From the IMG/VR virus record IMGVR_UViG_3300037312_000757: a stretch of DNA of 64,000 bases; one strand, 5' to 3'. This stretch comes from a virus (lineage: Duplodnaviria; Heunggongvirae; Uroviricota; Caudoviricetes). This document shows, in pieces, positions 32,148 through 60,047 of this stretch (positions are counted from its first letter, which is position 1; each line of letters opens with the position of its first letter). The notes beneath the pieces are model-generated. The model was not told the DNA's origin, did not search any database, and saw nothing but the letters and a program-made list of their open reading frames with translations. Both the position numbers and the translations under genes were made by a program.

Positions 32148-33680
32148 TTATGCTGCGAGCTTGTATTCAACAGGCTCAAAAGCATCAGCCGTAACGCCTG
32201 CACTAGCGCGTTCGCGAGCACCGTCAAATGCGTCTACTTCGTTGCAGAAGTGTTCACCATTTTCGAACACGACGTTGTGGATGATGGGTTCACCACCCCA
32301 CATCTTGCGGTCGATACTACGGATAGTACCGTCCGCTTCACGCACGTTGATGATGAAGCCTGACAGGGACTTCTTCTTGCTGTCGGTGATAGGTTCCTTC
32401 AGCAATGCAATCCAGTCGCCGTTGACGCTTGCGTCGCGGTTAAACGACATCGCCACAGCTTTTTGCGAGAACGAGAATTCGTCGCGACCAGCTTCGTGGG
32501 TCAAGCCACCGCCCATACCAAACAGGAAGCTACCGAACGACCAACCAGCGTCATCGCACGCAGCCTTGAGAATAACAGGGATGCTGTGCAGGTTGATACC
32601 GTCACCTTGCAGAACGCCGATGTATGGTACCAGTTCCTTGTAACCCAGCTTGTTGATGGTGTAACCGAAGGTGTCACCAGCCAGTTGCAGGATCTTTGGA
32701 ACTTCGACTTCAGGAACACCGCTGTCAGGACGCAGAACCAGCTTTGCGCCTGCTGCGCCGCATGCTTCGATGCGAGGCTTCAGCTCAGGGCCACCGAGGA
32801 ATTCGGTGATGAAACGGTATGCGTTGTAAGTGTCGATAACGACGCTAACGATCGGCAGCCCTTTCAGTGTACCGGCCTTCATGCGACGAACCTTTTCTTC
32901 CAACAGTTCGACCGCCATCACTGCTGCGCCGAAGTCGTTCTTGGTCTTCGCGTCTGAGTTGGCACACATCGTGCTGTGCTCAGTTGCGTCAACCGAACTG
33001 GTGTAGGGCTTCTTGGTGTTGTACAACTTCTTGATGTTGATGTTTGCGCGGCTGCAATCGCTGCCCGAGAACAGCATTGCGTGAGCGATTCCCGCCCATT
33101 GCGCAGCTTCATCGGAGTCAGCACCACGGTCACCAAAGTTGTGAAGTTGGTATTGCACCATAAACGGGTCAGCACCAGTCTTGACTGCATATTCCATCAG
33201 CTTTTCGTACACAGCACGGCTGATAGACGACACGGTCATGAACTTCCAGATGATACGTTGTACAACGGTTTCAACGTAGGATGGCAACCATGCAAAATCA
33301 GGATGGGTATTGACGACGGTCAAAACTGCGGTGTTCGGCAGAATGAGAGTGCCATCCGGCAGAGCTTCGATGCGCAGTGGGAGACGACCGTCAAACTCAT
33401 CAACAATCTTGCGCCAGCCTGCTTCATTGATATCGTAGCCTTGCTCGCCAGCTTCGAGAACTGCTTCGTCGATCATGGCGTGGGTGATGCGAATTGTTGC
33501 CAGGAACTTCGCAAGGTACGTGACACCAGACGTCACCAGAAGCTTGCTCACACCGTTTAGCTTGCGTGGAACCACGCTCGACTGCACGTAACAAACACCA
33601 ACAGGCAGTTGCTTGTAGTGACCGAACTTGTAGCTGTCTTGAGCCAGAATGAAGTTGTTGTTGAGAAGTGTTGCTGTCAT
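32148..33680 (-). CDS. nadV: Nicotinamide phosphoribosyltransferase
   Basis: DSYK.GH..Q, LHNFGDRG, EHSTM, VVIDTY, LRPDSG, QGDG, FGMGGGL, FSQKA, KKSLSG. Confidence 0.92.
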   Translation of the reverse strand: MTATLLNNNFILAQDSYKFGHYKQLPVGVCYVQSSVVPRKLNGVSKLLVTSGVTYLAKFLATIRITHAMIDEAVLEAGEQGYDINEAGWRKIVDEFDGRLPLRIEALPDGTLILPNTAVLTVVNTHPDFAWLPSYVETVVQRIIWKFMTVSSISRAVYEKLMEYAVKTGADPFMVQYQLHNFGDRGADSDEAAQWAGIAHAMLFSGSDCSRANINIKKLYNTKKPYTSSVDATEHSTMCANSDAKTKNDFGAAVMAVELLEEKVRRMKAGTLKGLPIVSVVIDTYNAYRFITEFLGGPELKPRIEACGAAGAKLVLRPDSGVPEVEVPKILQLAGDTFGYTINKLGYKELVPYIGVLQGDGINLHSIPVILKAACDDAGWSFGSFLFGMGGGLTHEAGRDEFSFSQKAVAMSFNRDASVNGDWIALLKEPITDSKKKSLSGFIINVREADGTIRSIDRKMWGGEPIIHNVVFENGEHFCNEVDAFDGARERASAGVTADAFEPVEYKLAA

Positions 33681-33706
33681 GATAAAATTCCTTTATCTAC
33701 GAAATG

Positions 33707-33725
33707 CCCCAAGTCTATCTCGGGG
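33707..33725 (-). promoter_or_regulatory. Leader hairpin with AUAGA loop upstream of nadV
   Basis: CCCCGAG-ATAGA-CTTGGGG. Confidence 0.55.
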
Positions 33726-33801
33726 ACTTTGGGTTAAAAGTTACTGCTGGTGCCAATTGTAAATTGTTTTTTAAATGGCACAATATCAAGGTGGCTAAAT
33801 T

Positions 33802-34905
33802 TTACTTAGCCAATTGGCCCTTTGCCCAGAGCAGCATGTCATAGTGATCTTCGAAACACTCAACACGCTTTACTTGGTGAATCGGGCGCCAGATCGCTTG
33901 CTTTGCGTCGTCGCGACCTTTGACCTTCGGCAAACCAGGAAACGCCTTGTCGTCGAGTAGAATCAACTGTGCTGTCGTGATAACGCGGCCACGACGTGAA
34001 CGCTTCTGATGAGCAAAACGCTTTTCAGTTACAATGCTACCACGCACGGCTAGTTCTGGTACCTTGATGCGTGTTTCTTCGACTAGTTCGCGGATAGCAG
34101 TGTCTACTACGTCAGCATCAGCAGGTTCCATCTTACCGTCAACCATTTCTGGTTCGGCACGCATGAATCCACCAGGCATTGCCCACAGACCCTTTCCAGG
34201 TTGTGACTTGCGCTCGATCATGAGCACATGGCCTGACTTAATCACGATAGCGTCGCCGGTCTGGAAGATCGGTGGGTACTTACTACCTGCACGGGTTGCC
34301 AGCTTGTAATTCTTGATGTAGTTGGCTTCCGCGACAATATAGTCGTAAGCTTCCGTGTGCATGAATTCTTCCAGAAAGCTGATCGTCGATTCTGGGCAGA
34401 CATGCCGGAAGAAGTCTAGGTTGTTCTTCTTGCTGAAATACAGCTCTCGAATGGTAGTCGCATCCAGCACATCGAATTGCGGCGTCAGGATAGGCGTACC
34501 CCATTGCGGGAACATGTTGAGATAGAAACTTGATTCGTCCTTGTTATGGCCGATCAGCTTCGTATTGCCGTGACAATGACCCTCGACTGCATCGGCGACC
34601 CATGTCGCCCATTGCGTGTTGTTATACATGCTGTTCTCGACAGACATGAAGTTCACATCGCAGTTGTATTTTTGCTTGAAATCAGCAGTGATGCGGCGAC
34701 CAACCTCGATCCGTTCGTCTTGATAGAACGGATTGTCTTCGTCGCGCGGCTGATTTGCCGAACCATAAATCAGGTTCAGCGTACCGCATTGCATGGCCGC
34801 TTCGCGCATTGTGCGCTCGTGAGCATTGTGCTGTGGCTGGCCACGAAGAATGAAGTTGATTGTGTCGACGCGTTCTGACGCAGGTGTGATGATGTTCATC
34901 GTCAT
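33802..34905 (-). CDS. natV: Bifunctional NMN adenylyltransferase / Nudix (ADP-ribose pyrophosphatase)
   Basis: RGQPQHNAH (HxGH variant), GSAN...NPF, YN..QW, GH.KD.SSFYL..FP, DAT.IR; Nudix box PGGF...AIRELVEET; DDA, FEDH. Confidence 0.88.
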   Translation of the reverse strand: MTMNIITPASERVDTINFILRGQPQHNAHERTMREAAMQCGTLNLIYGSANQPRDEDNPFYQDERIEVGRRITADFKQKYNCDVNFMSVENSMYNNTQWATWVADAVEGHCHGNTKLIGHNKDESSFYLNMFPQWGTPILTPQFDVLDATTIRELYFSKKNNLDFFRHVCPESTISFLEEFMHTEAYDYIVAEANYIKNYKLATRAGSKYPPIFQTGDAIVIKSGHVLMIERKSQPGKGLWAMPGGFMRAEPEMVDGKMEPADADVVDTAIRELVEETRIKVPELAVRGSIVTEKRFAHQKRSRRGRVITTAQLILLDDKAFPGLPKVKGRDDAKQAIWRPIHQVKRVECFEDHYDMLLWAKGQLAK

Positions 34906-43580: not shown

Positions 43581-43656
43581 TGGAGCGTCCACCAGGAATC
43601 GAACCTAGGATCCCAAGTTTAGAAGACTCGTATTCTTTCCATTGAACTATGGACGC
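43581..43656 (-). tRNA. tRNA-Arg(TCT) with encoded CCA
   Basis: GCGTCCA...anticodon loop CTTCTAA...GGTTCGATTCC...TGGACGC-T-CCA, 76 nt. Confidence 0.92.
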
Positions 43657-43718: not shown

Positions 43719-43940
43719 TTATTTGCCAGTTATAGAACTGAGGATTGATCTGCGGCTATCTACTTTGCCGTTGGTGCGGAGGGTTGGTGGGATACCACCT
43801 TTGTCTACAACGTTGCCAAACTTCTTGGCTTGCTTTGGTGTCTCGTCAACACCCACGTCACAAGTGGTGTTAATGCCTGGCACAATAGTACCGAGTTCGT
43901 CAAGACGTGTGCGGAATGGTGCGAAGTCATTAATGTTCAT
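43719..43940 (-). CDS. Small late protein, probable virion component
   Basis: TATAAATA at 43946-43953; starts MNINDFAPFRTRLDE. Confidence 0.6.
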   Translation of the reverse strand: MNINDFAPFRTRLDELGTIVPGINTTCDVGVDETPKQAKKFGNVVDKGGIPPTLRTNGKVDSRRSILSSITGK

Positions 43941-44004
43941 GTTTCTATTTATAAGATGAACATCAATGGCTGGCACGATGCCAGGGAAGGCCCCTGGCAT
44001 CCGT

Positions 44005-44349
44005 CTAATTCAGCTTAGAACAGCTTATGGTAAGCTCCTGAGTGTGGCTCAGAGCCTGCGATGTAATGCGAACGGAGGACGCTTGGCAGCTCGCCAGAAA
44101 AGCCTGTGGGTCTTTTGGAGCTTCCGTGATTTTCACGTCATTTCGGATCAAATTCCATGCAGCGGCTATAAGCCCGCTATCCACGTTCACAGCAATCCAC
44201 ACAACGAAAAAGAAAGCCAGTAGCTGCGGCAATCCCATTCGCTTGAACAGGTCACGATCATCTATCGCCCATACTGTGCCGATAGTACCAGCAGAGATGA
44301 CTAGCGATACTCCAGTCGTACATGCAATAAACTCAATGAACGGTGTCAT
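44005..44349 (-). CDS. Membrane protein
   Basis: Two hydrophobic helices. Confidence 0.6.
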   Translation of the reverse strand: MTPFIEFIACTTGVSLVISAGTIGTVWAIDDRDLFKRMGLPQLLAFFFVVWIAVNVDSGLIAAAWNLIRNDVKITEAPKDPQAFLASCQASSVRITSQALSHTQELTISCSKLN

Positions 44350-44587
44350 GTGACTGTTTGCATGTGATGATGAACGTTTGCATGTCGTTCTGTTGAGTGA
44401 CTTGATACCGCATGGACGGGAAGTCGCAGTTACGCATGAACGCCGACGCAGAGTTGTTCACTGTTTGATAGTTATTCGCGCCAGCTTCACATCCGGTAAG
44501 CGACGTGATCAGCACAAGCAGGATCATGCAAACAAAGATAGGCATAAGCTGCTTGATCGTTGCTTTGAATGATGGATTGAGCGCCAT
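44333..44587 (-). CDS. Putative lipoprotein
   Basis: Lipobox LTGC. Confidence 0.55.
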   Translation of the reverse strand: MALNPSFKATIKQLMPIFVCMILLVLITSLTGCEAGANNYQTVNNSASAFMRNCDFPSMRYQVTQQNDMQTFIITCKQSHDTVH

Positions 44588-44588
44588 A

Positions 44589-44894
44589 TTAGTGAATAGT
44601 TGGAGGAGTATCGCTGTAGTAAAGCTCGTTCATCGCTTCGATGATCGCAGGGTCCGTGACTGTGACTGCTTTGTAATTGCCTTGCGCATCAACGCTCAAG
44701 AACACATCACCATTTTCACCTGCTTCTTCGAAGGCTTTGATGTATTCAGGGTCTTGCATTGCAGCCAGCACACGTTCTTTGATGAGTGCAATCTCGTCTT
44801 CGGTGTAACCACCGCGTGAGAGAATGTCTTCAATGTGTCCGTCTACGTCGAAAGACATGTCCGTCTCGTAATCGTTGTTATCGTCGTCAAACAT
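44589..44894 (-). CDS. Acidic hypothetical protein
   Basis: Promoter TTGCAT-17-TATAGT at 44923-44951. Confidence 0.65.
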   Translation of the reverse strand: MFDDDNNDYETDMSFDVDGHIEDILSRGGYTEDEIALIKERVLAAMQDPEYIKAFEEAGENGDVFLSVDAQGNYKAVTVTDPAIIEAMNELYYSDTPPTIH

Positions 44895-44972
44895 TAGGTG
44901 GTACCTTTAAAGTTGCATTATCACTATAACGATTGGCAACCTCGAATGCAACATGTATTTGCCACATATGGC

Positions 44973-45101
44973 AAAAGCACCATTGCGGTGCTTTGTTTTG
45001 GATCCTCAGCGCATTTCAAGCTGCGCTGAGGACACTCCATCCCATGCCAATGAACAGTGCTTGAAGTATTCAATAGCAATCGCGCCAGATCAGTAACGCG
45101 A
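44973..45101 (-). ncRNA. Candidate small RNA
   Basis: Promoter TTGTAA-17-TAACAT (45108-45136), three hairpins, terminal hairpin AAAGCAC/GTGCTTTT. Confidence 0.45.
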
Positions 45102-45150
45102 TGCCAAATGTTACACATACTTACTGTACATTACAAATAGATTATCACAT

Positions 45151-45642
45151 TTAAGTGGTAATTGTTTCGATGACTTCGTCAAACTCACCGATGTCAGGTG
45201 CTTCAAATTGCTTGAACATGTTTGACAATACGTATGCAGGGATAACCTTACCTTGCGACAGTCGGTCTTCGTTCTGGGTGCGTGCCTTGACCAGGTCTTG
45301 TGGCAAGTTGAATACAACTGCACGCTTCTTATAGCTCTTAGGAATACGAGCCAACTTCTTCGCACGAGACTTGATAGTCAAGTTAGTTTGATCCCAGATA
45401 ATGTTCTGTTTGTGTGCGATCGCGGCAGCCAAACGGATATCGAACTCGCTCTCGACTTCCGAATACTTGAAGTGATTGAACGCTTCAGTATAGTTGAGAC
45501 CCATTGCTTGGCCCCACTCAACGAAGATAGCGTCTGTGCTGAGCACAACATATGCGCGATCAGTCTTCTCAAGATAGTTCTTGATCCAAGTACTCTTGCC
45601 CGAACCCGCCGGTCCGATCATCATGATCATATCGTTAAACAT
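45151..45642 (-). CDS. P-loop kinase (AAA_33 / polynucleotide kinase-like)
   Basis: MIGPAGSGKST, LSTD, IIWDQTN...R, IP..VL..M...FE.P. Confidence 0.8.
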   Translation of the reverse strand: MFNDMIMMIGPAGSGKSTWIKNYLEKTDRAYVVLSTDAIFVEWGQAMGLNYTEAFNHFKYSEVESEFDIRLAAAIAHKQNIIWDQTNLTIKSRAKKLARIPKSYKKRAVVFNLPQDLVKARTQNEDRLSQGKVIPAYVLSNMFKQFEAPDIGEFDEVIETITT

Positions 45643-46210
45643 CGAACAGATAGTCCTTTATTATTTGAATTGGTTGATCTGCTAGTAACACTTCAAAGTG
45701 ATTAAATGGGACTGCTACATATTCCGGCGCATCCCACGCCGTTTGACTCTTGATGGTCACTGCTCCATCATTTGCTTCAGTAAACATTGGGTTACCACCC
45801 TCAGTGGTAACCATACTCAGCGTAGGACAACCGAGAGGTGAATTGCGTAATGAAGTCAGCAATGGACTGTTAGTGCTGATTGTTTCAAACATCGCATGTG
45901 GGTTGAACCATTTAATAAGTTCCGCCGCCTTATTGCCACCAAAGGGAGTGCCCATTGTGACTACACGATCAACTAGGTTAGTCTTTTGTGCGATCAAGGA
46001 TGCGATGGCACCACCCAAGCTATGAGCGACAATGCTCACATGTTCGCCACGTGCTTTAAGCCGTTTTACTTCTGCGTCAATGACTAAAGAGATGTTCTCG
46101 CTTACGCTGTATGACAGGAACTCAGCCTTATGTGGTGGCAAGTTCTCTTGAATACGTTTGAACGTGGCAGGTGTCGAAAAGGCACCATGCACATAGAGAA
46201 TTGTTTTCAT
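45635..46210 (-). CDS. Alpha/beta hydrolase
   Basis: YVHGA, AHSLGG, MGTPF.G, NDG.V, NHFE. Confidence 0.85.
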   Translation of the reverse strand: MKTILYVHGAFSTPATFKRIQENLPPHKAEFLSYSVSENISLVIDAEVKRLKARGEHVSIVAHSLGGAIASLIAQKTNLVDRVVTMGTPFGGNKAAELIKWFNPHAMFETISTNSPLLTSLRNSPLGCPTLSMVTTEGGNPMFTEANDGAVTIKSQTAWDAPEYVAVPFNHFEVLLADQPIQIIKDYLFDV

Positions 46211-46250
46211 AGATTTCCTCCGTTTCATTATTTACAGCTCGTTCGGAGGG

Positions 46251-47513
46251 TTAAAAGTTAGTCTTAAACTTCTCACCAGTCTTGGTGCTTGTCACTTCAA
46301 CTTGTGGGAGGTACCAGTTCTCAATCTTGTCTTCGTCTATCTTGATGATCTGCGGATCGTTTTCAGCGTTGTTATAGTCTTTGCGAACTACCGAGAAAGC
46401 ACCTGTCAGGAATGCTTCCTTGTCAATCTCAACACCGTAAATGCGTGTGTCATTCTTATCGTTCGGATATGTGAACCCGTTATGGCGACCATAGTTATGA
46501 TTTTGGGCTCGCAAGCCAGCGGTGAACGCCAAATAGAACTTACTATTCACTTCAAACACATATCGCGCCGAGAACCATGAATAAGCAGAATTCAGTTCCA
46601 GAAGAGCAGAGGGTGAGCTCGGTTCCAGTGTGATGTCATGCGTGCATTCAGCAGTGCTAATGAAGCAGATATGCTTGTCATGGTATGAACGATCGTCAGT
46701 GCGGAATTTGTTTACTGCCTTTTCTGCTTCAGTAAGTGAGATCTCGGTGTCTTCAAGAATTCTAGCCACCTTTACAGTGCGAGCTTTGTCGAGAATTGGT
46801 TCATGTTCTTCGTCGCCTGACTGTGTGATAGCAACGATGTACGTCTTCTTTGGCTCCACTGCGATCTGATGCTTTTCGGTGTACGATTGGATACGATTAC
46901 GAAGATGCCATATAGTATGGCCACGATCATCCTTCTGGTCGTCAAACTCACCGTCATATTCACGGAACACTTCGTAGAAGGAGCCGTAGTACGTGCCGAT
47001 ACGACCGTCACGTAGTTCAACCTTGTAACCCGGCTTTACCGTCTTCAAGTTGACGGATAAGCCAAAGCGTTCTGTGTTCTTCACTGCGTCCTTGTACGGA
47101 TCGCTAGTGATAGGCAACAAAACATTGTCGGTTCCGTCGCGTCCCCATGCACAAGGAACCATGATTTCACCATTGATGACTGTGTTTTCACTCATAATCT
47201 CGATCACGTTTTCAACCGAGATTTCGAGTTCAAAACCACGTGGGTCTTCAATGCGAATGAGAGTTGTGCCATTACGGCCCCAACCACGGCGAGCTGAGTC
47301 TGCAATTCGGAAGCCAGATACTGGTTCGTTCTCGAAAACAACGGACTTCAGCTTGCTGCTTGACGTTGCTCGATCAATTGTTGCGATACGCTTCTTGCCA
47401 GCTGCATCTTCTCCGTAGGGAGTAAGATAGCCTAAAGGCGCACCACTTTCGGTATCACATCGGTAGAAACCAACGTATGCCTTGTCAAAGAGTTTGATTG
47501 TGAGTGAGGACAT
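46251..47513 (-). CDS. Hypothetical protein, large gene of duplicated module A
   Basis: YVGF...PLGYLTPY...IRIEDPRGFELEISVEN. Confidence 0.75.
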   Translation of the reverse strand: MSSLTIKLFDKAYVGFYRCDTESGAPLGYLTPYGEDAAGKKRIATIDRATSSSKLKSVVFENEPVSGFRIADSARRGWGRNGTTLIRIEDPRGFELEISVENVIEIMSENTVINGEIMVPCAWGRDGTDNVLLPITSDPYKDAVKNTERFGLSVNLKTVKPGYKVELRDGRIGTYYGSFYEVFREYDGEFDDQKDDRGHTIWHLRNRIQSYTEKHQIAVEPKKTYIVAITQSGDEEHEPILDKARTVKVARILEDTEISLTEAEKAVNKFRTDDRSYHDKHICFISTAECTHDITLEPSSPSALLELNSAYSWFSARYVFEVNSKFYLAFTAGLRAQNHNYGRHNGFTYPNDKNDTRIYGVEIDKEAFLTGAFSVVRKDYNNAENDPQIIKIDEDKIENWYLPQVEVTSTKTGEKFKTNF

Positions 47514-47560
47514 TTGTTTTCTTGTTATAAGTCCAAGTTCGTACGACTGAAACGGGCCGC

Positions 47561-47803
47561 TTATCGACATAGCGAAATCAACAAAGCGTAATTCGTGATC
47601 GCTTCGTCAAGTTCTGCCTGATGTTTTGCCGCGACGTCCGCTGCTGCCTGTACTTGTTCTTCTGCGATACGTTTCTTGATACGTTGAATTTCAAGCCACG
47701 CGTCCTTGACACCGTCGTTGTTGAAAATCAACTCAGCTTCAGTCGTGTCGGTATCGAGGTTTTTCCCGTTCTCACGGGCGATCTTGAGGTATTCTTTGGT
47801 CAT
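47561..47803 (-). CDS. 80-aa helical protein, small gene of module A
   Basis: W..IQ.IK..IA...NYALL..L.R. Confidence 0.7.
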   Translation of the reverse strand: MTKEYLKIARENGKNLDTDTTEAELIFNNDGVKDAWLEIQRIKKRIAEEQVQAAADVAAKHQAELDEAITNYALLISLCR

Positions 47804-47912
47804 TTCTAGTTGTTATTATTTGCCAAGCCTTGCCAGTCTACTACAGTTTCCTTTAGTGCAACACAAAGAATGGTAATGTACAATACGGCTTCAATATTTC
47901 ATGGAGGTCAAT

Positions 47913-49205
47913 GTGAGTGAACTAGAGTCAGGCGACCATCGCCTGATAGGTAAGGAACTTGACCTCTTCCACATTCAGGAAGAGGCAATCGGTAGCGTGT
48001 TTTGGCACCCCAACGGCTACACGCTGTTCCGTACCATCGAAAACTACATTCGCGAGAAGGTTCGCAAGGACGGATATCGCGAGGTGAAGACGCCCCAGAT
48101 GATGGATCGCAAGCTTTGGGAAGCGTCAGGCCACTGGGCCAAGTATCGCGAGAATATGTTCGTGGTTGAACAAAATGAAGAAGTAGTCCATAGCCCAGAT
48201 TGCGTTCGATACATGGATGATGGTAAGGGTGGTGACTATGCGGAGTTTTGTAATTGTGCAACCACGCCTTCATATCTGGCCATCAAGCCCATGAACTGTC
48301 CGGGGCATGTGCAGATCTTCAATCAGGGCATTACGTCATACAAAGATTTGCCAATCCGTTTGGCAGAGTTCGGTGCATGTCATCGCAACGAACCATCAGG
48401 TTCGCTACTGGGTCTTATGCGTGTTCGCGCATTCACGCAAGATGATGCACATATTTTCTGCACTGAAGATCAAATCAATGACGAAAGCGTCAAGTTCTGC
48501 AATCTGCTGTTGTCCGTCTATCGTGACTTTGGTTTCAACGACGTCAGCGTAAAGCTTTCCACGCGCCCTGCTGCTCGAGCGGGTAGTGACGAAATTTGGG
48601 ACAAGGCTGAAAAGGGACTTGCTGACGCAGCTTCAGCCGCTGGTCTCACGGTTGAACTGCAACCTGGTGAGGGTGCATTCTACGGTCCGAAACTTGAATT
48701 CACATTGACCGACAAGCGAGGCCGTCAGTGGCAATGCGGAACACTTCAGCTCGATCTAGTTCTGCCTGAACGGTTGGGGGCCAGTTACGTCACCACGGAA
48801 GGAACGTCCGCACACCCAGTAATGCTGCACCGTGCGATCCTAGGCTCTGTGGAGCGTTTTATGGGGATCCTGCTTGAACACGATGAAGGCAAGCTTCCGT
48901 TCTGGCTTTGTCCTGTTCAAGTCGGTATCGTTCCTGTCAACGAAGCGCATCATCAGTATGCGAAGAACTTGATGGAACAGCTTGACAATGAAGGCGTGCG
49001 TGTTGAGATGAATTCAGATGCATCACATTTCAACAAACGTATGAAGGGCTACTTGGGCAAGCGTGTGCCAGTAGTCATCATTGTTGGTGACAAAGAGAAG
49101 AATGACTATAACGCGACACTGCGTTATCGAGATGGTACGCAAAAGACGATGGCTTTGCGTTCTGCTGTTGATACGCTGGTCAAACAAAACAGACCAGGTC
49201 GTTAA
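47913..49205 (+). CDS. thrS: Threonyl-tRNA synthetase lacking N-terminal TGS/editing domains
   Basis: DHR.IG..LDLF, KPMNCPGH, CHRNEPSG, TQDDAHIFC, GEGAFYGPK, WQCGT.Q.D, MLHRAILGS.ERF, GDKE; GTG after GGAGG. Confidence 0.93.
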   Translation: MSELESGDHRLIGKELDLFHIQEEAIGSVFWHPNGYTLFRTIENYIREKVRKDGYREVKTPQMMDRKLWEASGHWAKYRENMFVVEQNEEVVHSPDCVRYMDDGKGGDYAEFCNCATTPSYLAIKPMNCPGHVQIFNQGITSYKDLPIRLAEFGACHRNEPSGSLLGLMRVRAFTQDDAHIFCTEDQINDESVKFCNLLLSVYRDFGFNDVSVKLSTRPAARAGSDEIWDKAEKGLADAASAAGLTVELQPGEGAFYGPKLEFTLTDKRGRQWQCGTLQLDLVLPERLGASYVTTEGTSAHPVMLHRAILGSVERFMGILLEHDEGKLPFWLCPVQVGIVPVNEAHHQYAKNLMEQLDNEGVRVEMNSDASHFNKRMKGYLGKRVPVVIIVGDKEKNDYNATLRYRDGTQKTMALRSAVDTLVKQNRPGR

Positions 49206-49207
49206 AG

Positions 49208-49234
49208 AAAAGGCCCGCAAATGCGGGCCTTTTT
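49208..49234. terminator. Bidirectional terminator
   Basis: AAAAGGCCCGCA-aa-TGCGGGCCTTTT. Confidence 0.85.
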
Positions 49235-50070
49235 TACTTCGGATCAGCTAGTGTGTACATCACTGCTTCTGAGCTGTCTTCAAAAATCCAACAATCACCT
49301 GTTGCTTTAATTCCTGAATTACAATTGCTCATAATCCAGCACCATTGTCGGAAAGTCATATCGTTCGGCAGATTGATGTTGCGACGAACTCCCATTGGTT
49401 CACACATCTTCACCACTGATCCCGAAATGTGCGTGTGATCAGCAATACGGGGCAAACACGCTGGCACATCAAGCTTGCCTACACGTTTCTCATAGGCATC
49501 CCACCATGCTTTAACTTCTGCGTAGTGTTCTTCTGCAACCATCAGCGTTCCGCGGAAGATGACTTCATCCGGGTTTTCATACCGATACGTGGACAAAGTC
49601 CAGGGAATTGCAGTATCAGTGAGTTGTGTCCACGTTGCGACATGGAAATACATTGCACGCATATCCAAGTCACATACTGCAACCAACTTTGTTCCTACGG
49701 GGACGGGGTGAAAGACTTCGGTGAACCGATCAGTCCAGTCAGGTTCACGTCCATAAACGTTATACGGTGAAACGGCCGCTACTGGATCGTTACTATCGCT
49801 AGCCTCAGCAACACAATCGTCATCGTCATCATAACGATGTTTATTGCGTGTGGGTTTCACCAGTATTTCATCACCTAGAAACCAGTCTTTGACTGCTTTA
49901 CCATAACGCTTGAATACGTTACCGCTTCGTGTTTTATTTGTTGTTTTTTTCTTTTCCATACCCAAAGAGCCCCAAAGCTGGTCTCTAAAAATCGCCAAAT
50001 CATCCAGATACGATCCACCCGGAAGGGTTTTGACGTGCGATCCTCTCCCTTGATTCTGCATCAAAGACAT
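49234..50070 (-). CDS. Tandem paralog 1 of 4
   Basis: WCWIMSNC...WIFEDSSEAVMYTL. Confidence 0.7.
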   Translation of the reverse strand: MSLMQNQGRGSHVKTLPGGSYLDDLAIFRDQLWGSLGMEKKKTTNKTRSGNVFKRYGKAVKDWFLGDEILVKPTRNKHRYDDDDDCVAEASDSNDPVAAVSPYNVYGREPDWTDRFTEVFHPVPVGTKLVAVCDLDMRAMYFHVATWTQLTDTAIPWTLSTYRYENPDEVIFRGTLMVAEEHYAEVKAWWDAYEKRVGKLDVPACLPRIADHTHISGSVVKMCEPMGVRRNINLPNDMTFRQWCWIMSNCNSGIKATGDCWIFEDSSEAVMYTLADPK

Positions 50071-50742
50071 TTAGGATTCCTTCGACAGCTTGTAAAGCAC
50101 AGCGTCGCTGTCTTCGGTGAAGAGCCAGTAGTCGTTGTTAACTATGTATGCTGGTCCGCAATTTTCTACAATCCAACGCCATTCAGCATGCTGTTCATCA
50201 CTAATGAAACCTGAATACAAGCCACGAGACTTCACTAGTAAGCCATCAAGGCGCATGCCATCCTTGAGTTGCGGAATTGACATGTTGATATCTGGAAAGC
50301 GTTTGCTGTAGACGTTCCACCACGTGAGGAACTGTTGCTTCAATTCTTCAGAGTTTACGAAGAATGTACCGTTATAATGACCATTCGGGTTCTTCTCGTC
50401 ACCATTGTGATCGACCATAACAGTCCAGCCTTCAGTTATCCGCTCTGCAGCAATCCACACAGCCAAATGTGAAAGTAGGGGTCGCAAGTGCAACGTCACA
50501 ACCGGAATCATTGTTTGACCATGCAGCGGACCAGACGGAATAGCTTTCACCCAGTCAAATTCAAGCCCACCAAATTCAGCCCAAGGGTTAGCTTTACAGT
50601 CGTTAGTGAAATTGAACTTGAATGACTTCATAGAAATCACCAGTGAATTTGACAATTCACTGTTTTCAATTTCGTCTTCATCTACACCCAAAGCCCAATC
50701 TCTGATCTTTTCGTAGGTTCGTTGCAGGACGTTGCGACGCAT
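50071..50742 (-). CDS. Tandem paralog 2 of 4
   Basis: WRWIVENC...WLFTEDSDAVLYKL. Confidence 0.7.
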   Translation of the reverse strand: MRRNVLQRTYEKIRDWALGVDEDEIENSELSNSLVISMKSFKFNFTNDCKANPWAEFGGLEFDWVKAIPSGPLHGQTMIPVVTLHLRPLLSHLAVWIAAERITEGWTVMVDHNGDEKNPNGHYNGTFFVNSEELKQQFLTWWNVYSKRFPDINMSIPQLKDGMRLDGLLVKSRGLYSGFISDEQHAEWRWIVENCGPAYIVNNDYWLFTEDSDAVLYKLSKES

Positions 50743-50745
50743 ATT

Positions 50746-51477
50746 TTATTTCTCTTCGTAAATTGGCGAAAGCTTAAAAAGCACTGCGTCGGCAGCATCA
50801 CCAAACACAAATGCTCGCTCAGTCACCCAGACTGGACCAGAGCAGTTCTCAATGATCCAAAACCACTGTTTAAAAATCGGGCCCCATGGTTCAGCTACAC
50901 GTGCATAATTGTTGTAGTTGAAGCCACGGTGACTGATTACCGTAGCATTAATGATAGCGGCATCTGGCAAATTAGGCAACAGATCGTTGCCACTTGTTCC
51001 GAAACGCTCGTTATATTTGGCTTCCCAATCGAGGAATCGTTCCATCAATCCTTTCGATGTGTACAGCGCGCCGAAGTAATATCGTTTCCATGTAGCAGTG
51101 TCAAATGATGCTTCAATCTGAAATCCGAACTCTTCATTTGGTACACCATGAAGTGTTTGCCAAACATGCACATTGAACATGAAACGTCGTGCATCTTCTC
51201 GCGTGACAACACTCAAATTTTCTGGGTTGCGCAACAGTGTCAACGGAATATCATTTTCAAGAAGCCATTCTTTGTGGCCACCCGCAATATGTTGCGCAGG
51301 AGTAAGTTCAGCATTCTCCTTACCGTCGTCTTCCTCTTCGGCTTCTTCGGCTTCTTCAACCTCTTCTTCGTACTCGACAACAAACCAACTACCAACCCAT
51401 TCGAAAATGTTTGACAGCATAGTGTCAAACGCCGCCCGCGCTTTACTCATCGTTGTTTTTCTCGGTGTGAATGTCAA
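50746..51477 (-). CDS. Tandem paralog 3 of 4
   Basis: WFWIIENC...FVFGDAADAVLFKL. Confidence 0.7.
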   Translation of the reverse strand: MTFTPRKTTMSKARAAFDTMLSNIFEWVGSWFVVEYEEEVEEAEEAEEEDDGKENAELTPAQHIAGGHKEWLLENDIPLTLLRNPENLSVVTREDARRFMFNVHVWQTLHGVPNEEFGFQIEASFDTATWKRYYFGALYTSKGLMERFLDWEAKYNERFGTSGNDLLPNLPDAAIINATVISHRGFNYNNYARVAEPWGPIFKQWFWIIENCSGPVWVTERAFVFGDAADAVLFKLSPIYEEK

Positions 51478-52264
51478 GGGTCAGCTTGTACATAATCAAT
51501 TCGCCCTTGTCTTTAAAGATCCAATAGTCTTCTGTGAAGAGAACTTTGTCTTCCGTGTTCTGCACAATCCATACCCAGCGATCGAACAGGTCATCAGTCA
51601 CAGTTGGCATACCATACAATGAACCAAGTTTCTGATTGTGACGGATCGGATAGCCGCTGATTTCAATGCTTTCGTGAATTTGTGGTAGTTGATTGTTTTG
51701 CCACTCGTTACCTTCGTAGCGTGATGAATAGCTTTCCCACCATTCGTTGAATGCTTCGAGTGCTTTGCCTTCACGGATCAACAATGTTCCTTTGTTGACA
51801 CCATGTCCCTGTTCATCCCAGATCACGCCATATTCTTTCTTCTCGGGTTTACAGCATGCCTTCCACACACTCACATGAAACATGAATGCAAAGGAATTGT
51901 CGCAAGTCATGACCGGTACAAACTTTTCACCGAGCGAAAAGAAACCACGGGGGAACTCGATAGGCAGTGCCCACTTAAAAGCTGGCACCAAGTATCCAGC
52001 ATTATTTGGATACTGCGGGTTAACTGATGGCCATGTCGTGGTGGCCATTGGCGTGCCCGTGAACGTGCCGATGCTAGGTGTACCTATTGGGTACGGGATG
52101 TAAGGATTATGTATGGTCTGACTGCTGATACCACCGATGTTATTGATGTTGCCAATAATCGATTCGTAATATTCCTGCTCCATCTTCCTCAGTTCGTTCT
52201 CAAGCTCATCCTGTTGTTTTCGCTTGGAGATTTGATCGAAGAGATCGCTTATTTTACTTTTCAT
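51443..52264 (-). CDS. Tandem paralog 4 of 4
   Basis: WVWIVQNT...WIFKDKGELIMYKL. Confidence 0.7.
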   Translation of the reverse strand: MKSKISDLFDQISKRKQQDELENELRKMEQEYYESIIGNINNIGGISSQTIHNPYIPYPIGTPSIGTFTGTPMATTTWPSVNPQYPNNAGYLVPAFKWALPIEFPRGFFSLGEKFVPVMTCDNSFAFMFHVSVWKACCKPEKKEYGVIWDEQGHGVNKGTLLIREGKALEAFNEWWESYSSRYEGNEWQNNQLPQIHESIEISGYPIRHNQKLGSLYGMPTVTDDLFDRWVWIVQNTEDKVLFTEDYWIFKDKGELIMYKLTLDIHTEKNNDE

Positions 52265-52341
52265 ATGGCTTGACGCCTCCTCATTTTTATTGTATATTGG
52301 CATACAAGTAAGCACCTATCAATATTTCTGTAGGAGAATCA

Positions 52342-53538
52342 ATGGACCAAAGCAAAACGATCGCAATCCTGCACCATTGCGTGAACGATGATCTGTTGCA
52401 TCTCCGCTCGTTGTTTCAGGCGGAAGGCTTCGACATCAGGATCGTAGGCGGCGCAGTTCGCGATATCTTGTGCGGTGAGACTCCCAAGGATATCGACCTC
52501 TGCACGGACGCATACCCGGACGAAGCTATCGCAATCTACGACAAGGCTGGCTTGAAGCATGTGCCGACTGGCATCGATCACGGCACCATTTCGGTTGTGA
52601 TGGACAGTGGAGTGTACGAAATCACCAGCTTGCGCTACGATACCGAAACTGATGGTCGTCATGCAAAGGTCACGTTCACGCGCCAGTGGTACGAAGACTT
52701 GGCGCGGCGCGACCTCACGATCAATGCAATGTCGATGACGTTCGACGGTGTGCTGGATGACCCGTATCAGGGCGCGCAAGACCTCGAAAATCATGTCGTG
52801 CGGTTTGTCGGTAGCCCCGAATTGCGCATTCAGGAAGACTACTTGCGCATTTTGCGTTACTTCAGGTTTGCTGGTCGTTTCGGCTACATGATGTTCCGCG
52901 AGGATCAGATCACCGCGATCAGCAAGCATGCATCAGGTCTTCGTCAAGTGTCACGCGAACGTGTGTGGCAGGAAGTCAGCAAGATGATGAAACACTTTTC
53001 GGCCAGCGCAGTATATGACGAAATGGGCAAGGCCGGTGTGTTGGCGTACTGCGATCTTCCACCGATCAGCGCAAAGAAGATGGAACGCTTGGGCAAAGCA
53101 TCTACCTTCTCGCAGAATGCGGCGGCTGTGTTCGCTACGTTGTTTGACAGCCCTGATGATGCTGTATCATATGCGAAGAAGCTCAAGATCAGCACGGACG
53201 ATATGAAGTTGATGAAGTTCGTCGCGCATGTCGTCAACAGCGGTACTGGTGGTGATCTGTTGACCGGGATGAAGTACGCGATCGCGATCGACAACGTTCC
53301 GTTCAACCACGTGATTGAAGCGTTGAAGGCGGTGGGTGAAGTTGTTGTTGCGTCACACTTGCAAGTCTGGAGACAGCCTAAGTTTCCAGTCAGCGGTGAT
53401 GACATGATTGCTGCTGGTATGAAGCCAGGGAAGGAAATCGGTCAAGCGCTTGACAATGCCAAGCACTTGTGGTTCATGAGCGATTTTACGGCAACAAAGG
53501 ACGACTTGCTCGCTCGCGTGTTGCCCAAGGAGGCATGA
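52342..53538 (+). CDS. cca: CCA-adding enzyme / class II tRNA nucleotidyltransferase
   Basis: VGGAVRD, DIDLCT, EITSLR, RRDLTINAM, EDYLRILRYFRF, SRERVW.E. Confidence 0.88.
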   Translation: MDQSKTIAILHHCVNDDLLHLRSLFQAEGFDIRIVGGAVRDILCGETPKDIDLCTDAYPDEAIAIYDKAGLKHVPTGIDHGTISVVMDSGVYEITSLRYDTETDGRHAKVTFTRQWYEDLARRDLTINAMSMTFDGVLDDPYQGAQDLENHVVRFVGSPELRIQEDYLRILRYFRFAGRFGYMMFREDQITAISKHASGLRQVSRERVWQEVSKMMKHFSASAVYDEMGKAGVLAYCDLPPISAKKMERLGKASTFSQNAAAVFATLFDSPDDAVSYAKKLKISTDDMKLMKFVAHVVNSGTGGDLLTGMKYAIAIDNVPFNHVIEALKAVGEVVVASHLQVWRQPKFPVSGDDMIAAGMKPGKEIGQALDNAKHLWFMSDFTATKDDLLARVLPKEA

Positions 53539-53804: not shown

Positions 53805-54518
53805 TCATCGTCGTCTGATGAGGAGCGCCTCGTTTGTAGGCGCTTCTTCTATTGGAATTGGCAAGCGAGGTAATGACATCAACTTGTCAATGTTGATGAT
53901 GCCGTCCAAGAACAGTACGCCACGAGTATGGTTGACTGGCATACTGCCGTGATCTAAATCAACTTCATTGAGCGCGAACGCGTTATTACCAACGCTGTAC
54001 GTCATCACTGTCCCATCAACGTCAACTACTGGGCAGCCGTTATCACCGGATGTGTCGGTCAATGCAAACTTGATTGCCAGATGTTTGTTAGCATCATGCT
54101 GCTCTTTCCATTGAGTGAAGTAATCTGTGTGTAATGGCAACGCCAGCCCCTCACACTGTAGGAGAATCACAGCACGCGTAAACAGGTGGTAAAGGGGAAG
54201 CAGAGGCTCGACAATACGTTGAACAGTCTCTAGAATTGGAGCAGAGAGATAACCATCATCCCATTGCCATGTTACTTGGTCGTTGAAGCGATTGACCAGA
54301 CTTGAGTTGACACGCCGTCCATCTTTCGTCGCATAGCGTGTGTTGATCGAGTAGACAAAATCGACACCACTGTATTCAGTTGAAGTGAACGAACTACCCT
54401 TGATTTTGCCGTCGAGGTACAGTTGTTTGGTATGATTCACCAACTGCTGTTGATCAGCTGGTGAAATGGTGAAGTCTGGAAGGATGAAACCGTATTGCTC
54501 AGGCAGTGTGCGTGTCAT
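53805..54518 (-). CDS. Putative 2OG-Fe(II)/cupin oxygenase
   Basis: LPLHTD...DHGS...R..L; TAAATA at 54524-54529. Confidence 0.5.
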   Translation of the reverse strand: MTRTLPEQYGFILPDFTISPADQQQLVNHTKQLYLDGKIKGSSFTSTEYSGVDFVYSINTRYATKDGRRVNSSLVNRFNDQVTWQWDDGYLSAPILETVQRIVEPLLPLYHLFTRAVILLQCEGLALPLHTDYFTQWKEQHDANKHLAIKFALTDTSGDNGCPVVDVDGTVMTYSVGNNAFALNEVDLDHGSMPVNHTRGVLFLDGIINIDKLMSLPRLPIPIEEAPTNEALLIRRR

Positions 54519-54526
54519 GCACCTAT

Positions 54527-55117
54527 TTAGTGGTGAGCAAACGGCGCATACCAGACGTCCCACTCATGCGTCTTGAGGTTGAAGTAGCGAAAGCCTTTTG
54601 CCAGCCACTGTTCAAAGTTCAGGAACTCTTCCTTCGCACCGTGTGCCAAATTGCGTGCATGCGCGGCAAGATAGTCGACGCGCAGGTTGTACACCGTGTC
54701 TTCGTGACCCTTCACCTTAGTGAACCTTGCTTGCCGCAAGCATTCAACCATGTCGTCATACATGACACTCGGATAGAATTCATTCACGAACATCATGAGG
54801 CGGTTGTGGATCCCATCGACGGTTTCGGTGCTAACCCAGTTGTCCTTGTGCAGGGCGAACGCCGCATTGACGACCCATTCATCATCGGTGAAGAACGATA
54901 CGTCGCAGTACGGCACTTTGCTACGCTTCACATAGTTGACAGCCTCAGCAAACGCCATCATCTCGTGGAACCCGCAGAACTGCTGTGGGGCGTCTGCCGT
55001 CCCACCATGAAGCTCGACAGTCGTATCGTTGTGATGCGCGACCAAGCCCCAGGAAAGCGTCCAGCGCTTGAATGCGTTGGGCGTTTGCTGACCACTACCG
55101 TCCATGAAAACGATCAT
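54527..55117 (-). CDS. RNase H-like protein
   Basis: FMDGS, HEMMA, FTDD, KVKGH, N..VDYLA. Confidence 0.75.
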   Translation of the reverse strand: MIVFMDGSGQQTPNAFKRWTLSWGLVAHHNDTTVELHGGTADAPQQFCGFHEMMAFAEAVNYVKRSKVPYCDVSFFTDDEWVVNAAFALHKDNWVSTETVDGIHNRLMMFVNEFYPSVMYDDMVECLRQARFTKVKGHEDTVYNLRVDYLAAHARNLAHGAKEEFLNFEQWLAKGFRYFNLKTHEWDVWYAPFAHH

Positions 55118-58252: not shown

Positions 58253-58579
58253 TTACCAGCCTCGAGCGTCAGAGTACTCGTTGTACGTCGCGTCTGGTAA
58301 ACTCTCGAAGAAAGCTTCCTGTGCAGTTTGCATACTACCACGAGTGATATACTGCATTGCGTCATTGGTCCATTCTTCGACTGACATGCGATACGACTGC
58401 AAATACCGTTGGTCATCGTCGGCAAAGCCGACCGCTTCAACAATAAAGTTCTGATCGTTGACATCATCCTTCACGATCGATTGCCAGTCGTACTTGACTT
58501 TGTACTTGAACATAACGCCTTCACCGATACGATCGAATAGATCGTACATGTCTAGCTCGAGAGTTACTTCTTCCATCAC
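58253..58579 (-). CDS. Acidic hypothetical protein
   Basis: GTGA overlap. Confidence 0.6.
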   Translation of the reverse strand: MMEEVTLELDMYDLFDRIGEGVMFKYKVKYDWQSIVKDDVNDQNFIVEAVGFADDDQRYLQSYRMSVEEWTNDAMQYITRGSMQTAQEAFFESLPDATYNEYSDARGW

Positions 58580-59802
58580 ACAAAACCCTTGATCGTGTTG
58601 CCTGCCTTCGTCGTGATATCAATATGCATGAGATAGAAACGCTTTGCAGAGCTTTCAGGAATCTCAGTCGCGTATTCGTACTTTGTTGCCAACGATCGAC
58701 CTACGTGGTCTATTTCACGAACCACCAACCCAGTTGCCTGCGTGCGAACACTGTTGTTCCACGAGTTGCCGCTGTTCGGGCTGTGGGCCCAGTAGCAGCG
58801 ATCGGGATCTTGTCGATCCATCTTGAAGTTGAGATGGTGTTCTGCGTAATACTTCTTACCATCATCCGCTTCGACGAATGAACTAAACGGCTGGCGATAA
58901 CCGTCATGTAACTCGACTTCCTGCTTGATCTCTGCTTCGGTAATATCCACCTCAGACAAGAGGCCAACAGTGTATCCGGACAGCACATATGCCACTACTG
59001 GTCGATAACCATGTGCCGAAAGGTCTTCACAAGCTTGACGATTCAATGCCATAGCCGAAATCACTTCATTTTCGATCTCAGCAACCGTCAACTTCTTCTC
59101 GGCCTTCTTGGTGACTTCAATCACCTTGATCGATGGACGACCAACCAAGTACGGCTTGCCATTTTTCACAACCTTGACCACGTAACGTTTTGCGCCTTCT
59201 TCGATCTTCAGCGACGAACGGCGGTATGACAGGTTCCCATCCGTGTGAAGCGCAAGCATGTTGCCCAGATAGATACCACGTTCACCAGTCACCAGTTCGA
59301 CTTCGTCACCAATCGTGACTTCCTTCAACGGAATCACGGCAGCAACCTTCGTTCGCAACACTACCGAATTCTTGTACGGTTCACTGTTCGTCGGAAGCAG
59401 AATGTTCCGATTGCCATCACGACCCCACACACATTCAGCGATGATTTCGCCGTCATCGAGCAAGTTCTCGTTCATGCACATCACGAGGTTTTCGATCGTG
59501 ATTTCAAGTTCGAAGCCGCGCGGATCTTCAATCCGAACGTAGCTTGCCCCGCTACCGTTCCAACCACCGCTTCGACGAATTGCACGACCGATCTTGAAGC
59601 CGATCATTGGCTTGTTGTCGAGAATGACGCTGTTGAACGTCTTAGTGCTGCCATAGCCGCGTGCCCAGTTATCGACCGTATCACGACGTTTTTGTCCTGC
59701 TTCGTCGTCGTTGTACGGAGTCATGAAGCCAAGCGGAACTTCGTCTTGCGTGCGACGGCCTTGGAAGCCAACGTAAACCTGTTCAGGGATCTTGATTGCC
59801 AT
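58576..59802 (-). CDS. Hypothetical protein, large gene of duplicated module B
   Basis: YVGF...PLGFMTPY...VRIEDPRGFELEITIEN. Confidence 0.75.
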   Translation of the reverse strand: MAIKIPEQVYVGFQGRRTQDEVPLGFMTPYNDDEAGQKRRDTVDNWARGYGSTKTFNSVILDNKPMIGFKIGRAIRRSGGWNGSGASYVRIEDPRGFELEITIENLVMCMNENLLDDGEIIAECVWGRDGNRNILLPTNSEPYKNSVVLRTKVAAVIPLKEVTIGDEVELVTGERGIYLGNMLALHTDGNLSYRRSSLKIEEGAKRYVVKVVKNGKPYLVGRPSIKVIEVTKKAEKKLTVAEIENEVISAMALNRQACEDLSAHGYRPVVAYVLSGYTVGLLSEVDITEAEIKQEVELHDGYRQPFSSFVEADDGKKYYAEHHLNFKMDRQDPDRCYWAHSPNSGNSWNNSVRTQATGLVVREIDHVGRSLATKYEYATEIPESSAKRFYLMHIDITTKAGNTIKGFV

Positions 59803-59804
59803 GA

Positions 59805-60047
59805 TTATCGCGTGAGAGTCAGGAGGAATGCGTAGTTTTCTTCTGCGTCTTTGAGTTCTTCTGCGAACTGTTCATCGATCTTCTTGATCGCTTCTTGTTT
59901 CGCAGTAGCAATCTTGCGCTTCAGATCTTGAATGGTTTGCCAACCTTCCTTGATTGATTCACTTGACGCGTGCAGTTCAGGTTCGGAGACGTTCGACGCA
60001 TCACCGAGGCTCTTTTCACGGAGATTGGCGAGATAGTCAGTGGACAT
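59805..60047 (-). CDS. 80-aa helical protein, small gene of module B
   Basis: W..IQ.LK..IA...NYAFL..L.R. Confidence 0.7.
   Translation of the reverse strand: MSTDYLANLREKSLGDASNVSEPELHASSESIKEGWQTIQDLKRKIATAKQEAIKKIDEQFAEELKDAEENYAFLLTLTR

Follow-up and report, generated by a model that had tools for sequence, protein, structure and literature searches.

An editing-domain-less threonyl-tRNA synthetase, conserved and probably active, in a soil phage and other huge phages

The window analysed here is a stretch of 64,000 nucleotides (nt) within the 523,836-bp virus record IMGVR_UViG_3300037312_000757, a soil phage whose record carries direct terminal repeats and has a G+C content of 47%. It contains a gene for a threonyl-tRNA synthetase (ThrRS) that begins just before the catalytic core and lacks the editing domain. 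We consider it likely that this gene codes for a working, minimal ThrRS of bacterial type, inherited in a clade of huge phages, which adds to the supply of Thr-tRNA-Thr during infection. From the sequence we infer its enzymatic activity, its mischarging, its benefit to the phage and the timing of its expression.

Precisely, the open reading frame (ORF) extends from 47901 to 49205 (+) and codes for 434 amino acids (aa) when counted from the ATG at 47901, and an in-frame GTG at 47913 gives a product of 430 aa; residue numbers refer to the 434-aa form unless otherwise stated. The only Pfam matches in the protein were tRNA-synt_2b (residues 126-327) and the anticodon-binding domain HGTP_anticodon (PF03129, residues 340-428, E 6e-16). 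The TIGR00418 thrS equivalog was matched with 484.3 bits against a cut-off of 383.65 (482 bits in a six-frame search of the genome) and, since the match covers only model positions 167-563 of 565, the N-terminal third of the enzyme is absent. Neither the TGS domain (N1) nor the tRNA_SAD editing domain (N2) was found in the protein by Pfam and TIGR00418, and the DHR motif stands at residues 12-14, i.e. 8 residues after the GTG start. The protein is hence a core-only variant of the class IIa enzymes described by TIGR00418, not a canonical full-length member, and its sequence is of bacterial and not archaeal type (NF003068, 186 bits against a cut-off of 484). A first-pass annotation, made on the letters of the window, had proposed a phage-encoded ThrRS without the editing domain, starting about 8 residues before DHR and with intact zinc ligands. 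The terminal repeats of the virus record, together with Pfam and TIGR00418, bear out the former point, and the alignments confirm the latter.

Functional residues were compared between this protein and 26 other sequences, with numbering taken via an E. coli-like sequence. The equivalents of the zinc ligands Cys334, His385 and His511 (E. coli numbering) are present and invariant in the alignment (A1), and R363 and E365 (motif 2), D383, Y462, K465, Q479, T482, Q484 and R520 (motif 3), which are conserved in ThrRS, are kept as well. All the substrate-binding and zinc residues checked are therefore conserved, in line with the intact zinc ligands noticed in the first pass. Among the positions conserved in at least 85% of 102 full-length ThrRSs, F487 is the sole one that has changed, and this change is confined to a six-member subclade that includes the protein of the window; looser thresholds added conservative changes only, at 466, 572, 581 and 583. 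The anticodon-binding domain retains the equivalents of Glu600 and Arg609, and its conservative changes at 572, 581 and 583 are clade-specific. A phmmer search against the PDB aligned the protein co-linearly with the engineered E. coli core 242-642 (1EVK and 1EVL; E about 1e-130), and the AlphaFold (AF2) model of the protein, with a mean predicted local distance difference test (pLDDT) value of 78, superposed on the 1EVK and 1EVL chains with template modelling (TM) scores of 0.83-0.90.

Between the gene of the window and four close relatives, the ratio of non-synonymous to synonymous substitution (dN/dS) was about 0.05-0.08, with a proportion of non-synonymous differences (pN) of 0.08-0.17 and a proportion of synonymous differences (pS) of 0.66-0.77, which is saturated. 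The gene is under strong purifying selection: it is a selected gene and no remnant. An assembly artefact or a functionless, 5′-deleted fragment of a host thrS could explain the missing N-terminus, and nothing else in the data; we regard it as extremely improbable. In fact, the start point, the Shine-Dalgarno sequence, the GTG and the terminator are conserved across saturated synonymous divergence, the gene is far from the ends of a 524-kb contig that has terminal repeats, and the related contigs that are long enough to show gene order have kept it. The conservation data refute the remnant reading.

The same truncated form is found in other phages. The twelve nearest homologs (58-80% identity, 404-430 aa) have the same start point; P0004, P0008 and P0010 are coded on contigs of 327, 96 and 377 kb, respectively, that carry phage genes. 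A scan of IMG/VR gave about 17 further contigs with a truncated ThrRS, most of them of 115-608 kb and four of 30-49 kb. These further forms are about 390-440 aa long and share the start point, with longer upper bounds for L068 and L082. The full-length ThrRS matches in IMG/VR were mostly at the edges of prophage records, i.e. in host DNA. LR756504, the 636-kb genome of an uncultured phage, also codes for a truncated ThrRS of 386 aa, which is unannotated there. The protein of the window belongs to this huge-phage deltaN-ThrRS clade, as defined by a start 5-12 residues before DHR, a length of about 385-435 aa and a phage contig. The first-pass annotation had considered that its closest bacterial homologs might be equally truncated: the closest homologs are indeed equally truncated, but they are phage genes and not bacterial ones. 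The truncation is therefore a trait of the lineage and no peculiarity of a single phage. Megablast with a 20-kb part of the window returned no match among phage records.

The nearest full-length proteins are alphaproteobacterial (Kiloniellales, Nisaea; 54-57% identity), in line with the alphaproteobacterial look of the sequence reported in the first pass. Phylogenetic trees (FastTree and quick IQ-TREE) placed the protein, with moderate support, in a group made only of truncated sequences and adjoining alphaproteobacterial ones. In free trees the truncated forms fell into several separate lineages. A single clade of all the 22 verified phage sequences was not rejected by the approximately unbiased (AU) test (p 0.169), and constraining 20 truncated sequences to one clade gave a log-likelihood 27.5 units higher than that of the quick free search. 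Because both results fit one clade, the simplest reading would be that the truncation arose once, long ago, and then spread among huge phages, and independent origins of the truncation are not claimed. Since the same cut-down design is found throughout the huge-phage clade, the truncation looks selected, not broken.

As regards translation start, the sequence ATG-GAG-GTC-AAT-GTG holds a GGAGG that precedes the GTG at 47913 by 5 nt. GGAG followed by 5-6 nt and GTG is kept in four relatives (L003, L085, L086 and L087), whereas the upstream ATG is not conserved, L085 having CTG and L086 GTG in its place; for this reason the GTG is probably the true start, likelier than the ATG, and the product would be of 430 aa.

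The gene also appears to be transcribed on its own. The ORFs on both sides (43719-47803 and 49234-52315) are all tiled on the minus strand, so that the ThrRS gene is the only plus-strand gene locally, and it is the lone plus-strand gene in related contigs too. The hairpin right after its stop codon (-25.6 kcal/mol, z = -5.1) has equivalents with compensatory changes in five relatives. The sigma-70-like hexamers in the upstream spacer match the consensus at 9 of 12 positions, which is not above shuffled expectation, and a -10-like element 15-30 nt before the Shine-Dalgarno sequence recurs in four relatives; we consider this region a candidate promoter. The gene's isolation on the plus strand and the terminator behind it, both noticed in the first pass, thus hold, and the transcription unit of its own that was proposed there is well supported by the conserved terminator and by the minus-strand neighbours. 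Transcription would be monocistronic, from a promoter with a short leader to the bidirectional terminator.

No Thr-leader attenuator was found in this lineage by regular expression and three-frame reading of the upstream regions of the window and of 20 related loci. The 97-nt spacer upstream of the gene holds no Thr run; close relatives (L003, L004 and L006) and eight IMG/VR loci, read in three frames, likewise showed no attenuator, and the upstream spacers of close relatives hold only promoter-like elements. A short Thr-rich ORF lies upstream in L022. A scan with Rfam gave no leader upstream of the gene, its Thr_leader and Leu_leader matches being the downstream terminator. An extra conserved non-coding block of about 240 nt lies between an 80-aa gene and the ThrRS gene in two relatives (L003:5660-6000 and L087:1032-1367); it is absent from the window and had no Rfam match. 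Genome-wide, the 70 nt that precede predicted genes are enriched about 17-fold in the 7-mer ATAAATA, which resembles the late-promoter box of T4 and stands before 48 of 584 ORFs; the ThrRS gene has no copy of it upstream.

Possible substrates are coded in the same genome, in which ARAGORN predicted 58 tRNA genes and a tmRNA. Three tRNA-Thr genes (UGU, CGU and GGU) are present, each with an encoded CCA and with G1-C72, C2-G71, G35 and U36, which we take to be the identity elements for E. coli ThrRS. All three have NGU anticodons in ordinary 7-nt anticodon loops. Recognition of the anticodon and of the acceptor stem by ThrRS has been described in general terms (PMC9976931). The search for tRNA-Thr variants suggested in the first pass hence gave only tRNAs with canonical elements and ordinary loops. 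The charging of phage tRNAs that it proposed is plausible given these three genes, whereas the altered specificity finds no support. The latter had been modelled on yeast mitochondrial MST1 (3UGQ, 4YYE), which is likewise an editing-less core with an anticodon domain (TM about 0.82 to the phage model), although only 32-33% identical to the phage protein. The tRNA-Thr served by MST1 is unusual in that its anticodon loop is enlarged, unlike the ordinary loops of the phage tRNAs. This comparison, together with a conserved core unchanged except for F487 in one subclade, does not favour an MST1-like change of specificity.

Some tRNA genes deserve a separate description. The tRNA-Thr(UGU) gene (388999-389083 of the virus record, outside the window) stands apart from the main tRNA array; its 85 nt include a variable region of 14 nt able to form a GGG/CCC hairpin, which is unusual for a threonine tRNA. 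A 77-nt gene called 'tRNA-SeC(tca)' by ARAGORN (190515-190591 of the virus record, outside the window) resembles tRNA-Trp, by eye, in its anticodon arm and G73, and this tRNA(UCA) may be an opal suppressor. An alternative genetic code was considered and discarded: code 11 already gives a coding density of 86%, so that TGA recoding across the genome is not evident, and the ThrRS gene showed no need for recoding. A solitary tRNA-Arg(UCU) gene (43581-43656, -) lies about 135 kb from the main array.

Serine is not fully excluded by the zinc site of ThrRS, which is why this enzyme is the standard example of a synthetase dependent on post-transfer editing. Dock-Bregeon et al. (2000) reportedly found that E. 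coli deltaN-ThrRS is able to aminoacylate but also mischarges serine. In full-length ThrRS the N2 domain edits, and the N-terminal region is needed in thrS autoregulation (PMC7373986). A six-frame search of the whole phage genome for TGS, tRNA_SAD, tRNA-Thr_ED (PF08915), YbaK/ProX and DTD (PF02580) found none of them, so the look-out for free editing domains advised in the first pass ended empty-handed. As N1 and N2 are absent and the phage codes for no editing factor, the phage ThrRS would be unable to clear Ser-tRNA-Thr by itself, and the host would have to supply any editing.

According to the mechanism that we favour, the phage ThrRS would form a dimer, activate threonine on its zinc site and charge tRNA-Thr during infection; its substrates would be the UGU, CGU and GGU isoacceptors of the phage and probably the tRNA-Thr of the host too, and the extra threonyl-tRNA would feed the translation programme of the phage. 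Over a short lytic cycle Ser-tRNA-Thr would be tolerated, or else the full-length ThrRS of the host would hydrolyse it in trans.

A different use of the host enzyme would be a heterodimer, in which a phage core subunit pairs with a full-length host subunit, charging on the phage side and editing on the host side. Engineered E. coli core reportedly crystallises as a homodimer, and the sequence gives no specific sign of hetero- over homodimers; we hold this arrangement to be unlikely, even if it would suit a genome without an editing factor of its own, and even if the 54-57% identity to alphaproteobacterial ThrRS extends over the core that carries the dimer interface. A precedent for trans-editing in ThrRS heterodimers is that of Anabaena T2 with T1 (PMC4787780). 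T2 is a second ThrRS with defective editing, which makes Ser-tRNA-Thr and needs trans-editing by another ThrRS subunit (PMC4787780); it is a cellular zinc-starvation paralog that retains a degenerate editing domain, whereas the phage gene drops the domain outright.

The inventory of synthetases bears on another alternative, i.e. that the phage ThrRS replaces a host ThrRS blocked by borrelidin or obafluorin, by an abortive-infection toxin or by phage-induced shut-off. Soil, the source of the phage, is where ThrRS inhibitors are made. A six-frame search of the genome found no second tRNA-synt_2b protein and no tRNA-synt_1, _2, _1c or _1b protein (this search did not extend to the families for Arg, Cys, Met, Ala, Phe and alpha/beta-Gly), which leaves ThrRS as the only synthetase among the families searched and agrees with a bypass. 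We nevertheless consider a bypass improbable. To our knowledge there is no toxin that targets ThrRS. Tyr462, the target of obafluorin, is retained, and no core position conserved in at least 85% of full-length enzymes has changed apart from the subclade-confined F487. Resistance of the ObaO type involves G463S and L489M, and a change of Gly463 confers resistance to both obafluorin and borrelidin (PMC11252418). In the phage clade Gly463 and Leu489 are unchanged and invariant, i.e. in the sensitive state, which speaks against the ObaO-like bypass put forward in the first pass.

The retained tRNA genes and residues also bear on a non-canonical role, in which the core would bind a tRNA-Thr-like RNA for regulation or make some other aminoacyl product, or in which serine mischarging itself would be selected. 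Synthetase paralogs without accessory domains often gain new roles (PMC9437257), and the related contig L006 has an extra core-only class II paralog. A role of this kind appears quite improbable here, given that strong purifying selection has preserved all the catalytic and zinc residues as well as the anticodon-binding domain, that the TIGR00418 equivalog cut-off is exceeded and that cognate tRNA genes are present. The L006 paralog (L006:11564-12319, -, on a 96-kb contig) is a 251-aa class II core without an anticodon domain and with weak matches to GlyRS, HisRS, SerRS and PylS; no counterpart of it was found in this genome, and a 252-aa gene at 53805-54563, considered as a candidate, was not homologous.

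Four points weigh against the explanation that we favour. The anticodon-binding loop at about E. coli 573-580 departs from the bacterial consensus, which would allow an altered tRNA preference; the share of threonine in the predicted proteome, 6.8%, amounts to a mild enrichment only; the explanation does not account for the retention of ThrRS rather than of another synthetase; and Sinorhizobium phage Phosso, a cultured jumbo phage, retains a full-length ThrRS, so that the truncation is not obligatory for phages. The Phosso enzyme (PV764938.1) is of alphaproteobacterial type and 49% identical to that of the window, but it has the full length of 640 aa with TGS and tRNA_SAD present. In this phage (469 kb; PV764938.1 401193-404608) the ThrRS gene lies about 0.9 kb downstream of the gene for the ribosome recycling factor.

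A further peculiarity of the protein lies between the ENMF helix and KPMNC, where six sequences including that of the window have about 21-33 additional residues; this insert is absent from the other truncated and full-length ThrRSs aligned. All six have the invariant pattern H-x3-C-x(7-15)-C-x-C, outside which the insert differs in both sequence and length; the residues of metal-ligand type are here His97, Cys101, Cys117 and Cys119. Since the loop is otherwise free to vary, the invariance of four ligand-type residues points to a candidate second metal site, namely a structural zinc. The AF2 model is uninformative over the insert (pLDDT <50). P0063 has a different, cysteine-free insert at the same hairpin tip. 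We give only a small chance to the bolder proposal that the insert forms a second zinc or redox site, on the beta-hairpin near the catalytic zinc ligand, which partly replaces the N-terminal half, be it in gripping the acceptor stem, in gating serine or in sensing metal or redox state, or that a hybrid dimer with host ThrRS borrows the editing site of the latter. If true, such a second metal site or hybrid dimer would be a previously undescribed route to threonine/serine discrimination.

Among known systems, the nearest in architecture is E. coli deltaN-ThrRS (242-642; 1EVK, 1EVL, 1FYF, 1KOG and later complexes with inhibitors), which has the same two domains, a boundary just before DHR, about 48-49% identity and all the active-site residues in common with the phage ThrRS. 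The former is a laboratory construct, whereas the phage protein is natural and conserved; in addition, the phage protein differs by the 30-residue His/Cys insert and by the diverged loop of the anticodon domain. The crenarchaeal split ThrRS-cat is likewise a natural ThrRS without an editing domain (PMC7373986), but in that system ThrRS-ed is supplied from a separate gene, and there is no such domain in the phage genome. Huge phages with many tRNAs have been described as encoding synthetases related to yet distinct from bacterial ones, and charging of phage tRNA variants was proposed for them (Al-Shayeb et al. 2020, PMC7162821); domain loss is not mentioned in the passages of that paper searched here. 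We found no description of an editing-less ThrRS architecture in phages in the literature. The ThrRS of the window is thus probably an active enzyme, a conserved natural variant, without editing, of a well-known synthetase that recurs in huge phages.

The positions of the features of the ThrRS locus are collected in Table 1.

Table 1. Features of the ThrRS locus, with positions in the window
Feature	Position	Strand	Basis or remark
Shine-Dalgarno GGAGG	47903..47907	+	5 nt before GTG; conserved in L003, L085, L086, L087
Promoter-like region in the 97-nt divergent spacer	47820..47884	+	TTGCCA-16-TACAGT at 47820-47847; -10-like TACAAT at 47879-47884
Coding sequence of deltaN-type threonyl-tRNA synthetase	47913..49205	+	430 aa from GTG; 434 aa from alternative ATG at 47901
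Subclade-specific insert, residues ~92-124	48174..48272	+	Tip of beta-hairpin before KPMNC; alignment
Class II catalytic core (tRNA-synt_2b match)	48276..48881	+	Pfam; zinc ligand codons conserved
Zinc ligand codons	Cys133 48297-48299; His184 48450-48452; His310 48828-48830	+	Alignment
HGTP anticodon-binding domain	48918..49184	+	Pfam
Bidirectional intrinsic terminator	49206..49235	.	Hairpin GGCCCGC/GCGGGCC flanked by A run and T run; common to convergent minus-strand gene 49234-50070

Several neighbouring genes recur in the related contigs. Downstream, a gene of the CCA-adding enzyme/poly(A) polymerase family (52342-53538, +) has a PolyA_pol head and an RNA-binding domain. It keeps its place, on the plus strand and a few kb downstream of the ThrRS gene, in the four related contigs extending that far (L003, L006, L085 and L086); L087 ends before it. 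An 80-aa minus-strand gene upstream of the ThrRS gene is common to L003, L006, L085 and L087, and L086 is without this upstream module. Further upstream in the window, two minus-strand genes (45151-45642 and 45635-46228) code for an AAA_33/polynucleotide-kinase-like P-loop protein and for an alpha/beta-hydrolase-like protein, respectively; the former is found again in L003, L006 and L085, the latter in L006, L085 and L086.

The window also holds two copies (46251-47803, -, and 58576-60047, -) of a gene pair made of an 80-aa gene and a gene of about 410-440 aa, and both large proteins match the same PHROGs of unknown function (phrog_2475, 6266 and 30990). At 32148-34905 (-) there are genes for the salvage of nicotinamide adenine dinucleotide (NAD), coding for a nicotinamide phosphoribosyltransferase and for a fusion of nicotinamide mononucleotide (NMN) adenylyltransferase with NUDIX. 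The gene at 13944-15347 (-) codes for a protein with DUF2828 and DUF7788 that matches phrog_850 ('RNA-binding protein').

As regards annotation, public phage records label such genes plainly as 'threonyl-tRNA synthetase' or leave them unannotated, which the present result corrects. For enzymology and synthetic biology, the phage genes are a source of small ThrRS cores optimised by nature, some of which bring an additional Cys/His module. The retention of a ThrRS without editing domain by a large and old phage clade represents a natural experiment on the need of viruses for translational fidelity, and it raises the question of whether viruses lean on the quality control of their hosts.

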